Origin: an uncultured bacterium | Lineage (GTDB): Bacteria > Armatimonadota > Abditibacteriia > Abditibacteriales > Abditibacteriaceae | Assembly: GCA_963843795.1 (NCBI GenBank) | Contig: CAWJLW010000006.1 | Span: 2,108,001-2,172,000, forward strand | Length of the DNA stretch: 64,000 nt | Direction: 5' to 3' | In this document: in pieces, positions 12,483-38,491 of the stretch | Numbering within the stretch: the first letter of the stretch is position 1 | Layout: each line of letters opens with the position of its first letter | Made by a program: the position numbers and the translations under genes | Notes under the pieces: model-generated | Databases searched by the model: none | Told to the model about the DNA's origin: nothing | What the model saw: the letters and a program-made list of their open reading frames with translations, nothing else

Positions 12483-12516
12483 AAAACCGGCCTGCAAGTA
12501 CTTGCAGGCCGGTTTT
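12483..12516. terminator. 34-bp palindrome with 12-mer core, probable terminator after rplT
   Basis: AAAACCGGCCTGCAAGTACTTGCAGGCCGGTTTT. Confidence 0.75.
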
Positions 12517-13458: not shown

Positions 13459-13815
13459 ATGTCAACGCAACCAACAAAAACACTGGAAACTTTTCCCAAT
13501 CCGCACCCGAATAATTCTTATACAATTCGCTTTCACACTGAGGAATTCACCGCAGTTTGCCCTTTGACCGGCCAGCCGGATTTCGCGCAAATTACTGTTG
13601 AATACGAACCAAACGAAAAATGTTTGGAATCGAAGTCGATTAAGCTGTATTTGTGGAGCTTTCGCGACGAAGGTCATTTTCACGAAGATGTGACCAACCG
13701 CATTTTGAACGATATGGTTGAAGCGTGCGCGCCGCGTTGGATGACCGTGACGGGCCATTTTAACATTCGTGGCGGCATTGATTTCGTAATTACCGCCAAA
13801 CATCAAGGCAAATAA
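13459..13815 (+). CDS. queF: NADPH-dependent preQ0 reductase (short, Bacillus-type)
   Basis: EFTAVCPLTGQPDFA and ESKSIKLYLWSFRD QueF motifs, HE...RGGI. Confidence 0.93.
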   Translation: MSTQPTKTLETFPNPHPNNSYTIRFHTEEFTAVCPLTGQPDFAQITVEYEPNEKCLESKSIKLYLWSFRDEGHFHEDVTNRILNDMVEACAPRWMTVTGHFNIRGGIDFVITAKHQGK

Positions 13816-23551: not shown

Positions 23552-23600
23552 GATTTTCCTCAGTTCTCACAGCAAGTACTTGCAACGTTCAAGTTACGAT

Positions 23601-25136
23601 TTAGAAACCGCAGCGTTGCAAAAGTGCGGCAATTTCATTGTGCGTTGCGCCTACTTTGGCGCGTGCATCAAACAAATCCTGTGCCCGCACCGGATACCAG
23701 TTGCGCCGATTTTTAGCACCAATTCCCACCACATCAAACGGCTTAATAATTTCCGCAATTTGCTTTAACAAAACCGCTTTATCCGACGCGTTTCCAATAG
23801 GCATTGCGTTCGTCAGACACGCGCGCATTTGCGGGCCGAATTGCGGATGATCGCACAGCAAAAACGCGCCCGACAAATGCGATTTGTTCAAACGTCGCGC
23901 GGTTTCGCTAAAGCTCGCGGCGGCGAAATACAACATCGTCAGCGCACTAAAAACTTCGAAATCGTTGAGGTTTTGGTATAGCGCGCCAACCAACTGCTCG
24001 ACCGCGCACAATTCGCGCTGTGTTTGAGCGGCGTACTTTTGCAATGGTTCGTTCAATGGTTTCGTCCAAGCGTTTTCAATGAGACTGCCCAGACGCGCCA
24101 CACCCGCAAGCGCTAAGGGAAAGCCTGTCGACAACAATGGATCGCTGAAACCCGCGCTCGATGGCAACAACGCCCAATCGTCGCCCGCGACTTGATCGCT
24201 GCGAAAGCTCGGCGCGCTGGAATGCGCGAAAGGGCGCACCGGGGTCGCCTTTTCAAACTGCGCTGCCACGCTGGGCAATCGTGCTAAAATGCGCTGCCAT
24301 GCGTTCTCAGCGTCACCCAAATTTAACTCGCTCGCCAAATTGTCGTTAACCGAAATCCCCGCGCTGGTGATGCCATTATTAAAACGCAAAACCCACATCC
24401 AACCGCCATCAAAAACATGGTGCAGCGCGGCATCATCAATCGGAAACGGCACATTGTCGGGCGCATTTATCACATCCGCGAACAAGCGCACATCGCGAAA
24501 ATGCGAATAGAGAACCTGCGTCGGCAAAACTCGCTCGCCGGTCAAACCCAGCGCGCGATGCAAAAAGCCGCGCGGCCCACTGGCATCAATCAACAAGCGC
24601 GCGCACAGTGCGATTTTTTTATCGTGGCGCTCCCCGCTCAAAAACCAATTTTCATCGTCGCGTTGCGGCGCATTTAAAGTCGTTTCGTCAAGATAATCGA
24701 CGCCCAACTTTTGAGCTTCTTTGAGAAGCAAATGATCAAAATCGGCGCGAAACCAGTGCGTGTCGGCAATGTTATTGTTCGGGCTGGCGGCCACTAAAAG
24801 TTCGTTTTCGCGTTCATTTTTCGATTGGAATTTTTGGCCTCTTTGATGATGATAAAACGAAAATCCGCGTTTGAGACCGCAACCGATTTCAGGATAATTT
24901 TTCTGCCAGCTTCCCCATTTCGCCAACGGCAATACGCGCGGCAAATCGTAGCGCAGCGCCAACTCTTCCAAAAGCAAGTTCGCCAAAGGCGTTGAAGATT
25001 CGCCGATGGCAAAGCGCGGATGACGCGACTTTTCCAGCATCACGACGCTATGGTTCAATCGGCGCGCTATCATCGCTAAAAGCGAAGCGGCGTAGCCGGA
25101 ACCGATAATGGCGATGTCGTAATTTTGATGTTTCAT
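23601..25136 (-). CDS. Flavin-dependent halogenase-like FAD oxidoreductase
   Basis: DIAIIGSG, HPRFAIGESS, RADFDHLL, LIDASG, GWMWVLRF (variant of WxWxIP), GFSDPLLSTG. Confidence 0.85.
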   Translation of the reverse strand: MKHQNYDIAIIGSGYAASLLAMIARRLNHSVVMLEKSRHPRFAIGESSTPLANLLLEELALRYDLPRVLPLAKWGSWQKNYPEIGCGLKRGFSFYHHQRGQKFQSKNERENELLVAASPNNNIADTHWFRADFDHLLLKEAQKLGVDYLDETTLNAPQRDDENWFLSGERHDKKIALCARLLIDASGPRGFLHRALGLTGERVLPTQVLYSHFRDVRLFADVINAPDNVPFPIDDAALHHVFDGGWMWVLRFNNGITSAGISVNDNLASELNLGDAENAWQRILARLPSVAAQFEKATPVRPFAHSSAPSFRSDQVAGDDWALLPSSAGFSDPLLSTGFPLALAGVARLGSLIENAWTKPLNEPLQKYAAQTQRELCAVEQLVGALYQNLNDFEVFSALTMLYFAAASFSETARRLNKSHLSGAFLLCDHPQFGPQMRACLTNAMPIGNASDKAVLLKQIAEIIKPFDVVGIGAKNRRNWYPVRAQDLFDARAKVGATHNEIAALLQRCGF

Positions 25137-25168
25137 CGGGAAAATTTTGCGGCGCAAGTACTTGCAGC

Positions 25169-26134
25169 TTATTTTGTTCCGCACAAATCGCACGCAATTG
25201 GTGCAAGTACTTGCTGCGTTTCATTCATCACTTGCAAACGCGCATGCCTTTGCACAAAGCAGTTTGCGCAATCGGAAAAGCGCTGCAAATCCCACAAATC
25301 GGCGAAAACACGCCCGCAGTCCAGGCCAATTCCATAATTCAAAACCTGTTCCAAACTATCGAGTTTTGGCGGCGACCATTCGCCATTTTCGGCCAAAAGT
25401 TCCAGCGCGCCATTGCCCGCGCGCGTCGGAATGAGGGCAGCGACGGTTGCGCCGCAATCGAAAGCGAAATCGAGCGACTGTTTGGCCCACAGAATCGCTT
25501 CGACTTCATCCATGAATGGCGGCTTGAGCAGAATGAAAACGCGCAGAGCGATATTGTTCGCGCGCAGAACCTCTGCCGCCCTTTGAAAATCGTGCAGTGA
25601 GGCGCCTTTATTTAAGCGCGGCCCCACCGTCGGATGCACGGTTTCTAAACCGATGGCGACTTCCAGTTTCCCATTCAGCATTTTTGCAAAACGCAGGCAA
25701 TCTTCGTTAACAAGTTTTGCGTGTGATTCGACGACAATGCGCTCGAAATTGTGCACGCGTTGGGCAATCGCTGCGTAATCTGCGCGCGGAATCGCTGCAT
25801 TATCGAAAAAACTTCCACTATTGTAAAGCTTGACGTGTTGCGCTGCAGGCAAGCGTTGCAACGCGTAATCAATTTGCGCGGGAATCGCGCCAACCGGCAC
25901 ACTTTCTTCCAACGTATTGCGCCACAAATCGCACATCAAACATTTCCACGGGCATTCGCGATTCGTCAAAAAGATCGTCGCAACGGAAACGATTTCGCCA
26001 CTGGCCGCGCGCTCGTTCTCGCACACCCATTCATACGGACGAAAGGCATCGAGTTCGGCGCGTGGCACAGTGCGGCGTTGTGCGACGATCCAACGATTGC
26101 GCTCGGATTGGCTTTGTGGATAAAGCGAAGCCAT
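25169..26134 (-). CDS. Radical SAM protein, RaSEA/TIGR01210-like
   Basis: CPWKCLMC (CxxxCxxC), KLYNSGSFFD, VVESH, LEVAIGLET, LNKG, ILLKPPF, WSPP. Confidence 0.8.
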   Translation of the reverse strand: MASLYPQSQSERNRWIVAQRRTVPRAELDAFRPYEWVCENERAASGEIVSVATIFLTNRECPWKCLMCDLWRNTLEESVPVGAIPAQIDYALQRLPAAQHVKLYNSGSFFDNAAIPRADYAAIAQRVHNFERIVVESHAKLVNEDCLRFAKMLNGKLEVAIGLETVHPTVGPRLNKGASLHDFQRAAEVLRANNIALRVFILLKPPFMDEVEAILWAKQSLDFAFDCGATVAALIPTRAGNGALELLAENGEWSPPKLDSLEQVLNYGIGLDCGRVFADLWDLQRFSDCANCFVQRHARLQVMNETQQVLAPIACDLCGTK

Positions 26135-26137
26135 CAA

Positions 26138-27457
26138 TTACTGATAAAGTGCCAAAAATTGTTTGCGATATTCAATTTCGCGCGCCGGCAAACGTTCGCG
26201 TAGGCTTTCTTTGGGCAGTGCGCCGTGTTGAAAGCGGCGCTTTTCATACGCCGGCATTTTAATTCCTGTTACCTGCTGCACGCCGCTGGCCACAATTTCG
26301 CCTTTGAGCGCATATAAGCGTGGCACATCGTATTCGGTCAGCGTATCAAACGCGATGCGCTCGGCGGCTTCGACAACGTTCGGGCGCGTGAACGGACTAA
26401 AACCCGCGAAATTGAAGTGGCGCATCGGTGCGTAAGTGCGCGCGTAAGAACGGCTGAGGCCGCCGCTGTAAGTCAGAGAATGCTTGATTTTGCCAACACC
26501 CCAACCTTCCTGATACAACATCATGTTGTTGATGACGCTGCGAATCGTGAGTTCGGGATTTTCTTCGATGGGATAATCTTTCAAATTCTCGTCGCCCCCA
26601 TCGCCATCTATCAGATACAGCCAATTCGGATAAAGTTCGCGAATTCCCTTGCACAGCGCTAATCCCATGGCAGCGCACTCGATGTCGAGGGGTTTGTAAT
26701 CTTCAACGATGCGCACCGCTTCCTGCCAGTCCAAATCATCGGCATCGGCTTGAATTGGTTCCAAGAACATTTCCAAATCGACCGCACGCAGAAATTCGCG
26801 TGCCTGTTCTACGTCTGGCCCATCGCCCAAATCCAAGGTGAAGGCTTTCAAACGACTCAGATTCAGACCAAGTTTTTTCATGACGTGGTAAGTCGTGAGA
26901 AACACAGCACCGCTATCAATGCCGCCGGAAAAGCAGACGCCAATCGGTTCGTGGTCGGGGACAGAACGCAGCCATTTCGAGATTTCATCCGCCAATGCGC
27001 CGATATAAACGCGACCAATTTCATCGGTATCAGTCGCGTCCTCACTGCGCTGCGGCGTGAAAAAGCGCGTGTAAATCGGGTCCGGATCGGGACAGCCGAC
27101 CAGTTGAATTTCCGTAATGTAATGCGCGGGCACCATGCGCGTATAGCTGGGATGAAACTGATCGTCCAGGCCATTTTTCACCAGCCAATCGTGAATTGTA
27201 TCGACGCGGTCAGCCACAATCAAAGCCGGGCCAGCCTGCTGTTTGGCCAGAAAATAACGCAACGGACGATCCAAAGAACGCGCCATGCGCACGGTTTTTC
27301 CCTGCCGCGCGACAATAGCGAATGAGCCTTCGATACCTCGCACCTGTTCGGCATCGCCACTGAGAATGCGCGCGCGCGCTTCGTCGATGCTCAGGTCGTA
27401 TAAATGATTCGATTCGGATTGGGTCAAATCGACCAGCCGTTCCACATATTGATGCAT
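26138..27457 (-). CDS. Asparagine-synthetase-like PP-loop ATPase lacking the N-terminal Cys of the glutaminase domain
   Basis: GSFAIV...ARSLDRPLRY, CFSGGIDSG, DGDGGDEN, KRRFQHG. Confidence 0.8.
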   Translation of the reverse strand: MHQYVERLVDLTQSESNHLYDLSIDEARARILSGDAEQVRGIEGSFAIVARQGKTVRMARSLDRPLRYFLAKQQAGPALIVADRVDTIHDWLVKNGLDDQFHPSYTRMVPAHYITEIQLVGCPDPDPIYTRFFTPQRSEDATDTDEIGRVYIGALADEISKWLRSVPDHEPIGVCFSGGIDSGAVFLTTYHVMKKLGLNLSRLKAFTLDLGDGPDVEQAREFLRAVDLEMFLEPIQADADDLDWQEAVRIVEDYKPLDIECAAMGLALCKGIRELYPNWLYLIDGDGGDENLKDYPIEENPELTIRSVINNMMLYQEGWGVGKIKHSLTYSGGLSRSYARTYAPMRHFNFAGFSPFTRPNVVEAAERIAFDTLTEYDVPRLYALKGEIVASGVQQVTGIKMPAYEKRRFQHGALPKESLRERLPAREIEYRKQFLALYQ

Positions 27458-27597
27458 AATTTTCACGCCTTTGATTGAGTTGAAATTGAGTTGCTAAATT
27501 GAATTTGCTGTGTTTAAAGAATGACAAATCTGGAGCAAAAATGCCACAAAAGCGCACTGCAAGTACTTGCAGCGCGCTTTTGTGGGTTCAACTCAAT

Positions 27598-29101
27598 TTA
27601 ATAAGTCGAGGCTTTGGCGACTTCACGTTCAGCGTGACCATTGGAAGTTACCAGTTCTTCGTCGCCCGGTTTCATCCAGCACAGATTCAAACATTTCGCA
27701 GCGTTGGCTTCGTCCAGGCGACCAATCGGCTGCGAGTGCGGCGCGTGGTGCAACATTTCGGCGTCGGTTTCGGCTTCTTTGGCGATCAGTTTCATCGCAT
27801 CGCAAAACGCATCGAGCGTGGCTTTGGTTTCGGTTTCGGTCGGCTCGATCATCATCGATTCTTTGACAATGGTCGGAAAATAAACCGTCGGCGCGTGAAA
27901 ACCGTAATCGGGCAAACGCTTGGCGATGTCCCACGCCGTCACGCCGTATTTGCTTTTCAAAGCGCTCGCCGAAAGCACGCATTCGTGCTTGCACAAGTTG
28001 TCATTCGCCGTGCCATAAGTGTCTTTCAAACGCGCCAGCACATAGTTGGCCGCCAGAACCGCGTTTTCGGAAATTTCTTTCAAGCCGCTATCGCCGTGAC
28101 GCAAGATGTAAGTCAGCGCGCGCAGAATGACGCCGCTGTTGCCGCGAAAACGCGTGCAGTTGGCCGACCGAATCGGGACGGTCGAAATCCATCACGTATT
28201 TGCCATCGCGCTCGACGACGTGCGGCGTGGGCAGAAACGGTTCGAGAATATCGCGCACCGCGACCGGCCCCGCACCCGGCCCGCCGCCGCCGTGTGGCGT
28301 CGAGAAAGTTTTGTGAACGTTGAAATGCATCACGTCGATGCCGGTGTCGCCCGGTTTGACCGCGCCCAGAATCGCGTTCATGTTCGCGCCGTCCATGTAA
28401 ACCAGCGCGCCCTGTTCGTGCGCCAATTGGCACAAAGTTTCGATTTCGCGCTCGAACACGCCCAGCGTGTTCGGGTTGGTAATCATCACCGCAGCCACAT
28501 CCGGCCCTAAAGCTTCGCGCATCGCTTCGATATCAACGCAACCGTTTTCATCCGAATGCACTTGCGTCACGTCGAATCCGCAGCGCGCCGCGCTCGCCGG
28601 ATTGGTGCCGTGCGCCGAATCGGGAACCACAATGCGCGTGCGCGTCGCACCATCTCCGCGCGACTGATGATAAGCGCGAATCATCAGTAATCCGCAAAAT
28701 TCGCCCTGCGCTCCGGCCAAAGGCTGCACTGTTGCGGCGTGCAAACCGGCGATTTTCGCCAAGACATTTTGCGCGCGGAACAACACTTCGAGCCAGCCTT
28801 GCGTCGAATCGTCACTTTGCAAAGGGTGCACAGTGGCGAAACCGGGCATTCCAGCCACGACTTCGTTGATTTTCGGGTTGTACTTCATCGTGCACGAACC
28901 GAGCGGATAAAATTCGGTGTCGATGCTGAAATTTAGCTGCGACAATTTGGTGTAATGACGCACCACGGAATGTTCGTCCAAAGCGGGCAGCGGCAAATCG
29001 TCGCGCATCGCAAAATCGAAAGCGGCTTCCGGCACGTCGAGAGGCGGTAAGTAATCGTTGTATTGGCCGGGCGAGGAAAGCTCGAAAAGAATCGGTTGCA
29101 T
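27598..29101 (-). CDS. gcvPB: Glycine dehydrogenase subunit 2, interrupted by a +1 frameshift near 28147-28150
   Basis: YPLGSCTMKYNP, SAHGTNPASA, HFNVHKTFSTPHGGGGPG, then NAVLAANY, GFHAPT, MIEPTETE in the second frame. Confidence 0.93.
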
Positions 29102-37315: not shown

Positions 37316-38491
37316 TCAATCGTAGCGGTGAAACGCACAACAACGCGCGCAAATGGGATACGGTCCGTTTTGCGCCAATCGCATCCGATGGGCGCGCATC
37401 TTTTCGCCGTTCCAAATCTCCATGAAACTTTGCTCACGAATGTTGCCCGCCACCATGTTAAAGCACGGACTGACATCGCCATTGGGAAAAATCGCGGTTT
37501 GCAGCCACGCGCAACCCGGTGTGCGCGGACGAATCACGGTTTCGGGCTCGTTGTAGTAAATATCGAGTTCTTCACGATTGAGTTCGGGATAGAAAACCGT
37601 CGGAATTTTCGCTTTGCTTTCGACTTCACGCATGATTTCAAACAATTCCTGTGCGTCGATGCCGTTGGTCGAAGAAACGCCGATTTCTTCGGGATCGAGC
37701 GGCATACAATCGCTCCATTGATGATTGTGCGCATCGACCATGCCCGGTGTCATGAACCAGAAATGTTGGAATTGCAGTACATCGGCGCCCAACTGTTCGG
37801 CCACTTCTAGCATCTTCGGCATGTTGCGATAATTATCGCCGGTAATGACGGAATTCAAAGCAATCGCAGGCGAATTGCTGCCCGCTTTCTTTTTCAATTC
37901 GTGCAACTTTTGCAAACCGGCATACGCTTTGTCGAAAGTGCCAGAAACCATACGCAGCTTGTCGTGCGTTTCGCGCGGGCCATCAATCGAAACTTGCAAA
38001 CTCGCGGGTGGCGCTTCCATCAATTCTTCGGCTTTGCGCTCCAAAAGTGTCGCATTAGTGACCATAGCGACGTGCAAACCGTGATGTTTCATGCGCGCCA
38101 GAAGTTTACCGATGCCCGGATACAACAGCGGTTCGCCACCGGTAATCGAGAAATACGGCTTATACGGCGCAACTTCATCGACTAACTGAATCCATTCGTC
38201 ATCGCGGAAATAATCGGCTTTGCCCGCGACCTGTCCGGTCGAAACATAACGACAAAACGAACAGCGCAGGTTGCAGCGGAACGTTGGTTTGATAGTGATG
38301 AAACGCGGATTCTGCGAGCGTCCATCCTGATTGCCCCAAACTTTTTGCTCGAAAGGCAAAGCCAGCGAGCGAATGCGATTGTGCAAATACCACGGCACGA
38401 TTGTCTTGGCGTGTTGGCGCACGCGCTCGGGGTTTTCCAGCAAGGATTTAACCCCAATGTTCTTCACCATCTTTAAAGCATGACTGCCCAT
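37316..38491 (-). CDS. Radical SAM/SPASM (twitch) domain protein
   Basis: CNLRCSFC, TGGEPLL, VSIDG...HDKLR, C...PNGDVSPC...GNIRE...EIWNG...CARCC. Confidence 0.9.
   Translation of the reverse strand: MGSHALKMVKNIGVKSLLENPERVRQHAKTIVPWYLHNRIRSLALPFEQKVWGNQDGRSQNPRFITIKPTFRCNLRCSFCRYVSTGQVAGKADYFRDDEWIQLVDEVAPYKPYFSITGGEPLLYPGIGKLLARMKHHGLHVAMVTNATLLERKAEELMEAPPASLQVSIDGPRETHDKLRMVSGTFDKAYAGLQKLHELKKKAGSNSPAIALNSVITGDNYRNMPKMLEVAEQLGADVLQFQHFWFMTPGMVDAHNHQWSDCMPLDPEEIGVSSTNGIDAQELFEIMREVESKAKIPTVFYPELNREELDIYYNEPETVIRPRTPGCAWLQTAIFPNGDVSPCFNMVAGNIREQSFMEIWNGEKMRAHRMRLAQNGPYPICARCCAFHRYD

Follow-up and report, generated by a model that had tools for sequence, protein, structure and literature searches.

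The closest described counterpart of the locus reported here is the ArcS-RaSEA pair of archaeosine synthesis in Euryarchaeota. ArcS, which is only active when complexed with RaSEA, transfers lysine to preQ0, and the resulting preQ0-Lys is turned into archaeosine by RaSEA (PMC11298593). Two other groups of enzymes are relevant for comparison: AsnB, beta-lactam synthetase and carbapenam synthetase (PDB 1ct9, 1mc1 and 1q19), which have a two-domain fold in common, and the flavin-dependent halogenases PltM and CtcP. Here we analyze a stretch of 64,000 nucleotides (the window; contig CAWJLW010000006.1 of assembly GCA_963843795.1, positions 2,108,001 to 2,172,000) from an uncultured bacterium of the Abditibacteriaceae (Armatimonadota), in which three neighboring genes encode an AsnB-fold ligase, a RaSEA-like radical S-adenosylmethionine (SAM) enzyme and a halogenase-like flavoprotein. 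This trio is real and widespread; its chemistry is proposed. It is outside the RaSEA equivalog, the glutamine-dependent AsnB family and every named pathway tested, and the logic that we propose for it resembles that of ArcS-RaSEA. In all probability the trio constitutes one uncharacterized pathway in which archaeosine is not involved.

The grouping of the three genes is far beyond chance. A scan of species genomes found at least 569 that encode a relative of the radical SAM enzyme, and in the best 80 of the at least 569 loci a ligase gene lies within 10 kb of it in 76, a halogenase gene in 76, and both in 74. All three genes were matched at E<1e-20 in 72 loci, and in 65 of these they are direct neighbors with order and strand unchanged. 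A second set consisted of 80 metagenome loci that were picked with a divergent alignment and have 38-59% identity to the window protein. Here, the ligase gene is upstream in all 65 loci having at least 400 bp upstream, and the halogenase gene is downstream in 60 of 68. In an even sample of 121 genomes from the host phylum, the 21 genomes that encode the ligase are precisely those that encode the radical SAM enzyme, even where the genes are unlinked, and the halogenase occurs in 21, of which 20 are carriers of the other two. The initial annotation had proposed an uncharacterized pathway, and the counts of 74 in 80 loci and the same 21 of 121 genomes agree with this proposal.

A lone radical SAM gene was found in three genomes, two of which encode the ligase elsewhere. 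In the phylum of a Blastocatellia record (G005; 151 genomes, with G318 included in the trio counts), the radical SAM clade is present in 12 genomes, with the halogenase beside it in 10. Two genomes (G410 and G306) contain the ligase and the radical SAM gene and give no halogenase match. Because of these two genomes and the carrier counts, the ligase/radical SAM pair is regarded as the core of the system and the halogenase as a usual but not universal member. The pair behaves as an obligate one, as ArcS and RaSEA do. The pairwise distances of the trio proteins correlate across 90 loci (Spearman 0.86-0.89, values inflated by kin). The distribution of carriers is patchy down to the family level (5 of 11 genomes in one family), and in the phylum of G001 a radical SAM match was found in 1 of 171 genomes, the centre genome only. 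No carrier was listed among RNA runs, and 30 pattern matches in viral contigs were not confirmed.

The ligase is a member of the AsnB/beta-lactam synthetase fold by profile search (PF00733, 43.7 bits against a cut-off of 21), and it fails the profile for glutamine-hydrolysing AsnB (TIGR01536, 37.7 bits against a cut-off of 267). It contains the PP-loop SGGIDS at residue 177 and the motifs GDGGDE and KRRFQ, with no Cys among residues 1-60, so the description of a PP-loop ATPase without a glutaminase Cys, made from the letters alone, is upheld. The predicted model (predicted local distance difference test, pLDDT, 83) aligns with beta-lactam synthetase at a Z score of 24.2 (rmsd 4.0, 363 residues), and with human ASNS, E. 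coli AsnB and carbapenam synthetase at 22.9, 22.7 and 21.0, respectively; PP-loop sulfur transferases align far worse (Z 10-11 against 21-24 for the AsnB type). All of the structural alignments begin at target residue 29-42, indicating that the strand bearing the glutaminase Cys is missing. The amino-terminal nucleophile (Ntn) domain is 30-40 residues shorter than in AsnB, beta-lactam synthetase and carbapenam synthetase, and since these first residues are the site of the catalytic Cys, the ligase would need an outside amine. The PP-loop and the Mg-binding acidic residues are retained from these enzymes at an overall identity of 10-19%, and beta-lactam synthetase is likewise devoid of the glutaminase Cys. 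The fold is near-tied between beta-lactam synthetase and AsnB, and no clavam or carbapenem cluster genes are found among the recurring neighbor families scanned.

Residues S177, D181, S182, D258, D289, E290, K406 and C122 of the ligase are invariant in 133 near-full homologues that are 48-100% identical to the window protein. In the profile alignment SGGIDS pairs with SGGLDS and GDGGDE with GEGSDE, and E260 stands opposite the Arg in the AsnB TTIR motif, which acts in aspartyl-AMP formation. At position 260, 132 of the 133 homologues have E, Q or D, and the trio ligase thus differs from AsnB in having Glu or Gln in place of this Arg. K406, in KRRFQ, is presumably the counterpart of the catalytic Lys of AsnB; our literature search found no paper on the roles of the AsnB Arg and Lys. 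Two further features set the family apart from AsnB, beta-lactam synthetase and carbapenam synthetase: the obligate radical SAM partner, and an invariant GCPDP loop, the Cys122 of which is family-specific and lies in the vestigial Ntn domain. From these residues and the model we infer that the ligase is an active acyl-adenylate-forming enzyme that uses a substrate other than aspartate and an outside amine. The host genome encodes two further full-length AsnB-family genes.

The radical SAM enzyme (PF04055, 31.2 bits; CX3CX2C at 61-68) matches the RaSEA family TIGR01210 at 129.2 bits (E 1.9e-37), under the cut-off of 212.15, and the next family is TIGR01212 at E 0.007. RaSEA is, therefore, the nearest named family, as the initial annotation held, and the motifs that it quoted are all located (SGSFFD at 106, VES at 135, EVAIGLET at 158, NKG at 175 and LLKPPF at 202). 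Eight further members of the radical SAM family score 44-169 bits against TIGR01210, all under the cut-off. The protein is RaSEA-like but outside the RaSEA equivalog; it is close to no other characterized family, and its two partners do co-occur with it in other genomes. The cluster Cys are kept in all 179 near-full homologues. A carboxy-terminal CxxC...CxxC arrangement (289/292/315/318) is kept in 151-175 of the 179, where most misses are truncated matches, and these four Cys likely form a second metal site. The model is of high quality (pLDDT 96), and a fold search with it returned no close solved relative; the nearest solved folds are tied between queuine lyase (Z 16.6), biotin synthase (16.4) and HydE (16.0).

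A quick maximum-likelihood tree was built from 76 rows, hand-picked from the 179 near-full matches and six added proteins and without a confirmed RaSEA. In this tree, 71 of the 76 rows fall into one bacterial clade with a support of 100; P0391, a euryarchaeal record, lies outside this clade, as do three plasmid outgroups. The nearest named relatives of the window protein are from Abditibacteriaceae, Verrucomicrobiota and Blastocatellia. P0391 is the most RaSEA-like homologue and has the four-Cys arrangement.

ArcS-RaSEA and the trio are alike in several respects. TIGR01210 is the best family of the trio enzyme and has core motifs in common with it, and in both systems the radical SAM protein is tightly paired with an amine-transferring partner, a putative one in the trio. 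The differences are as follows: the trio partner is an AsnB-fold ATP ligase whereas ArcS is derived from tRNA-guanine transglycosylase (TGT), the radical SAM enzyme is under the equivalog cut-off, a halogenase is added, and there is no dependence on queC. Also, neither ArcS nor ArcTGT was found in the host genome (92% complete), which gave no match to the ArcS domain (DUF5591, PF17884; 0 matches, with a positive control in three euryarchaea) and encodes a single TGT that scores 93.6 bits against the 350 of ArcTGT (TIGR00432). A complex prediction for the ligase and the radical SAM enzyme gave a score of 0.00 and no verdict either way.

Several unusual records were encountered in the wider radical SAM family. 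The plasmid collection contains only distant RaSEA-like genes (21-30% identity) in unrelated contexts: one on a Streptomyces plasmid (L104) is found with P450, serine hydroxymethyltransferase, glycosyltransferase and carbamoyltransferase genes; one on Clostridium pSOL1 (L105) adjoins a membrane protein gene; and one on a Bacillus plasmid (L106) lies in a fatty-acid/polyketide synthase (PKS)-type cluster, two genes downstream of a full asnB. In P0347 and P0415, two 100% identical records, an outgroup radical SAM domain is joined via a hydrophobic segment to an FG-GAP propeller. A clean radical SAM-halogenase fusion (P0400) is a single record. Long fusion records number 11 in all, and of the six inspected five look frameshifted.

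The flavoprotein (PF04820, 56.6 bits) has as its best solved relatives the phloroglucinol halogenase PltM (E 2.4e-44) and the tetracycline 7-halogenase CtcP (E 6e-39), with residues 4-408 covered. Flavin-dependent halogenases have WxWxIP as a signature. In the trio family this motif reads WxWxL[RQKH], the WMWVLR first noticed in the window protein being found at residue 246: W246 and L250 are kept in all 119 homologues, position 248 is W or Y, and Pro251 occurs in only 4. The catalytic halogenase Lys, which the initial annotation singled out as a point to check, is present: K89 aligns with PltM K87 and is kept in 119 of 119 homologues, and the K87 Ala mutant of PltM is inactive (PMC6424973). 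Like PltM and CtcP, the trio flavoprotein has FAD-binding and DPxxSxG motifs; in the flavin adenine dinucleotide (FAD) motif GxGxxG, G17 is found in 34 of 36 rows, and the window protein itself reads GSGYAA. By alignment, Glu49, Trp400, Ser404 and Asn405 of PltM correspond to L51, Y403, A407 and S408, and the carboxy-terminal region also differs. These pocket residues and the different carboxy-terminal region suggest that the trio flavoprotein acts on a substrate different from that of PltM. Its nearest relatives are halogenases that act on free phenolic substrates, and it scores far under the cut-off with the QhpG, LodB and GoxB profiles (76.9 of 240, 43.4 of 400 and 44.9 of 400 bits, respectively). 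Judged by its sequence, it most likely halogenates an electron-rich aromatic compound in free form. Two Blastocatellia loci, L002 (3755-6758) and L005, contain a second, different halogenase-family gene (~457 aa) upstream of the trio; in L002 it is preceded by a HemN-type radical SAM gene.

The commonest neighbors of the trio are a giant TPR/FG-GAP/ASPIC protein (the giant), an ASPIC/UnbV propeller and an RnfD-like membrane protein. At least one gene of this module lies within 10 kb of the trio in 47 of the 80 genome loci (30 of 42 full-length) and 18 of the 80 metagenome loci. In the 47 linked genome loci the module is convergent and downstream in 39, divergent and upstream in five and co-oriented in three (L008, L042 and L046); L115 also has it co-oriented with the trio. 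In the host, the three-gene module is ~340 kb from the trio, in an operon encoding the giant, a UnbV-like propeller and a UnbU-like membrane protein (G000:C6:2473822-2480077; L085:7823-14078), with 44%, 61% and 57% identity to the module of locus L011, from the cultured Acidobacteriaceae bacterium KBS 96. The trio had been called an orphan operon; the tight clustering behind that label stands, and the label itself needs amending because the trio is tied to this exported FG-GAP/UnbV/UnbU module.

Among the 121 genomes of the host phylum, the giant is present in 21 of 21 trio carriers against 27 genomes overall, and the UnbU-like gene in 19 of 21 against 23. All 21 carriers have at least three ASPIC/UnbV genes, and they make up 21 of the 25 genomes with three or more copies and none of the eight with one or two. 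For comparison, of the 20 genomes with uvdE, a control gene of similar frequency, only 10 belong to the giant set. In a second phylum (151 genomes) the giant is found in 12 of 12 carriers against 61 overall. The dependence on the module is one-way: in the sampled genomes the trio is found only where the giant propeller proteins are encoded, and many genomes have the module alone.

The giant has a 440-residue carboxy-terminal domain for which sequence and atlas searches returned no named family or solved relative. This domain starts with a conserved SCxL motif, and D804-H805-P806, D814-E815-R816 and K1089-D1090 are kept in at least 95% of 67 homologues. The plasmid collection has no match for it, nor for the ligase. 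Selenocysteine was considered for two giant proteins and rejected, as the apparent in-frame TGA codons are normal stops.

UnbV and UnbU are, we take it, the E4 and E5 proteins of enediyne biosynthesis. A Streptomyces clavuligerus plasmid carries relatives of both in the same gene order as the host module: a VCBS-repeat gene matches the host propeller P0395 (27% over 96%), which has the same insertions, and an annotated unbU matches host P0394 (31% over 76%). The plasmid cassette combines them with DUF1702 and a type I PKS, whereas the neighbor in the host module is the 1154-aa TPR/FG-GAP/ASPIC protein with its unnamed carboxy-terminal domain. No PKS was found in the 20 kb around the host module, the part of the genome that was searched for one. 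PF08012 (DUF1702) had no match in the host, and the control genomes gave none either. The enediyne cassette is listed as E3, E4, E5, E and E10, with many conserved enediyne genes of unknown function, in PMC9682884; according to PMC11350584 the cassette is essential, and iodide is required.

The scheme that we tentatively favor is a lysine-masked route to a primary amide, with lysine in place of glutamine as the probable source of nitrogen. In this scheme the AsnB-fold ligase would adenylate a non-aspartate, aromatic carboxylic acid and couple it to the epsilon-amine of lysine. The 5'-deoxyadenosyl radical of the RaSEA-like enzyme would then cut the lysine carbon chain off the nitrogen to leave a primary amide, a step modeled on the RaSEA conversion of preQ0-Lys to archaeosine. 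The PltM-clade enzyme would put Cl or Br on the electron-rich ring, before or after the other steps, and this halogenation may be optional in some lineages. The resulting small halogenated aromatic amide would likely be used by the exported FG-GAP/UnbV/UnbU proteins. An N-epsilon-acyl-lysine intermediate appears the most economical choice because of the ArcS-RaSEA analogy and because a ligase with no nitrogen supply of its own is nevertheless almost always paired with a radical SAM enzyme.

A number of observations weigh against this scheme. The choice of lysine as donor rests on the analogy to RaSEA, and the TIGR01210 match, well under the cut-off, covers only profile positions 6-245 of 313. 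The host already has its two full AsnB-family genes, so the use of a costly lysine route needs explaining. Neither the invariant Cys122 nor the carboxy-terminal four-Cys site is accounted for by it. Some carriers show no halogenase (G065, G306, G410 and the genome of L068; incomplete assemblies), and neighbor clusters present in at least three loci include no recurring aromatic-acid precursor or flavin reductase gene. With regard to the exported module, the linked loci are mostly from Acidobacteriota and are not independent, and the module also occurs alone: of the genomes with the giant in the two phyla, 6 of 27 and 49 of 61 lack the radical SAM gene.

The two sites left over by the lysine scheme are the starting point of a different small-molecule or cofactor pathway, in which the radical step is not a lysine C-N cleavage. 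Cys122, invariant in a vestigial domain, could serve an acyl-enzyme or sulfur relay, and the conserved C289/C292/C315/C318 site a rearrangement, cyclization or sulfur insertion; the tied folds of queuine lyase, biotin synthase and HydE span such different chemistries. We consider this possible but doubtful, since RaSEA is the sole named family with strong similarity, the four Cys also occur in P0391 and may be an inherited structural site, and the ligase model is much closer to AsnB-type enzymes than to PP-loop sulfur transferases.

The correlation of the trio with ASPIC/UnbV expansion suggests another alternative, that the trio matures the exported propellers themselves through isopeptide or amide formation, radical cleavage and side-chain oxidation or halogenation before export. 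Precedent exists in LodB, GoxB and QhpG, which mature quinoproteins and to which the flavoprotein has weak matches, and the outgroup protein P0347 is fused to an FG-GAP propeller. This is unlikely: the flavoprotein is much closer to small-molecule halogenases than to any of the three, the P0347 fusion amounts to one sequence in two identical records outside the core clade, an alignment of the 11 host ASPIC proteins contained no common candidate target residue beyond the repeat motifs, and no short precursor peptide recurs among the neighbor clusters, in which open reading frames (ORFs) of 70 aa and above were called.

Alternatively, the trio may be a stand-alone secondary-metabolite cassette whose link to the FG-GAP/UnbV/UnbU module reflects the common ancestry and lifestyle of large soil-bacterial genomes. 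The ~340 kb between the two in the host, the frequency of the giant family in Acidobacteriota (61 of 151 genomes) and the single convergent arrangement of 39 of the 47 linked loci are consistent with this, as are the Streptomyces plasmid relatives of UnbU and UnbV, which sit with a polyketide synthase in a collection that contains no ligase match. We regard it as decidedly unlikely, however, because the nesting of the trio in the giant set is strict in two phyla (21 of 21 and 12 of 12) while the control gene reaches only 10 of 20, and because four arrangements of the linked genes are known and the divergent clade has the linkage too, in that case to another giant subfamily (36% identical).

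Modification of a tRNA or other 7-deazaguanine nucleoside, as a bacterial counterpart of archaeosine synthesis, is very improbable and this branch of the initial annotation is set aside: although the enzyme is RaSEA-like, queuine lyase is among the tied folds, queC and tgt are in the host, queF lies at 13459-13815 (~9.8 kb from the trio, close to the 10 kb first given) and ArcS accepts even a preQ0 nucleoside (PMC11298593), a queF gene at most 10 kb from the trio is seen in 0 of 80 genome and 1 of 80 metagenome loci, queC is found in 12 of 21 carriers (nine without a match) against 64 of 100 non-carriers, no RNA-binding domain was found on any trio protein, and both the patchy distribution and the ArcS and ArcTGT results above argue against it.

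The layout of the locus is given in Table 1. As first described, the trio consists of three tightly spaced, co-oriented ORFs (27457-23601, minus strand), the gaps being 3 bp (26135-26137) and 32 bp (25137-25168). The three genes are each single-copy in the host genome and have the GC content of the surrounding DNA, and all three enzymes are predicted to be soluble. The hairpin upstream of the trio is likely a terminator separating the glycine-cleavage genes from it; in the trio region as a whole terminator-like sites are not in excess (9 against 10.9 in shuffles), and a promoter scan was at chance level.

Table 1. Features of the trio locus (window coordinates)
Feature	Position	Strand	Basis
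AsnB/beta-lactam-synthetase-fold ATP-dependent ligase, 439 aa from ATG	26138..27457	-	PF00733; truncated Cys-less Ntn domain
RaSEA-like radical SAM enzyme, 321 aa	25169..26134	-	PF04055, TIGR01210 best family
Putative flavin-dependent halogenase, PltM/CtcP clade, 511 aa	23601..25136	-	PF04820
19-bp hairpin then T run, built on genome-wide palindrome	27544..27585	-	Consensus scan
Genome-wide 12-mer palindrome copy in radical SAM/halogenase gap	25154..25165		Not cassette-specific

The palindrome, of 12-14 bases, is extremely abundant, its 12-mer core being present in 2563 copies in the 4.3 Mb host genome. Further copies near the trio are at 23572, 25203 and 27559, and the 14-mer form occurs 27 times in the window (for example, at 12493, 18789, 27558 and 43815). 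It is often found with long complementary arms at gene ends, and also within coding sequence, as at 25203 in the 3' end of the radical SAM gene.

The flanking genes are a DUF4440 gene and birA downstream and the glycine-cleavage genes upstream, and these are not cassette members (DUF4440 and birA are near the trio in 0 of 160 loci and gcvPB in 1 of 160). Glycine dehydrogenase subunit 2 (27598-29101, minus strand) is split: its ORFs, 29101-28088 and 28104-27598, overlap and lie in different frames, pointing to a frameshift or an error of assembly. A second, unrelated radical SAM/SPASM gene in the window (37316-38491, minus strand) is under all family cut-offs shown. An NMT1/SsuA-type ABC transporter is encoded near the trio in 13 of the 80 genome loci, often with HMA, DUF169 and CMD/AhpD-like genes; loci with this transporter include L011, L015, L025, L064, L071, L079 and L115. 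The closest copy in the host (G000:C6:234464-237035; L087) is near another ASPIC propeller. Its role could be the import of a precursor or the uptake of the product.

We found no description of the trio in a literature search that covered few subscription journals. At least 7,700 homologues of the radical SAM enzyme and at least 8,000 of the ligase exist, and database labels for them often read 'archaeosine synthase beta-subunit' or 'asparagine synthase (glutamine-hydrolysing)', both of which fail the tests applied here. In its broadest form, our proposal is that the trio provides a third general route to primary amides, in which lysine serves an AsnB-fold ligase as a donor of ammonia in masked form, the unmasking being done by a RaSEA-type radical lyase, and that a widespread envelope machine (the giant TPR/propeller protein, UnbV and UnbU), a non-enediyne relative of E4/E5, uses the halogenated product as a cofactor or substrate. 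This full combination is improbable as it stands. If the lysine scheme holds, RaSEA chemistry would not be confined to a single tRNA base of archaea but would extend to the amidation of small molecules in bacteria, and abundant soil phyla would contain a new class of halogenase substrate. The enediyne relatives of the ASPIC/UnbV and UnbU proteins are essential but poorly understood, and the trio would then provide a genetic handle on these proteins.

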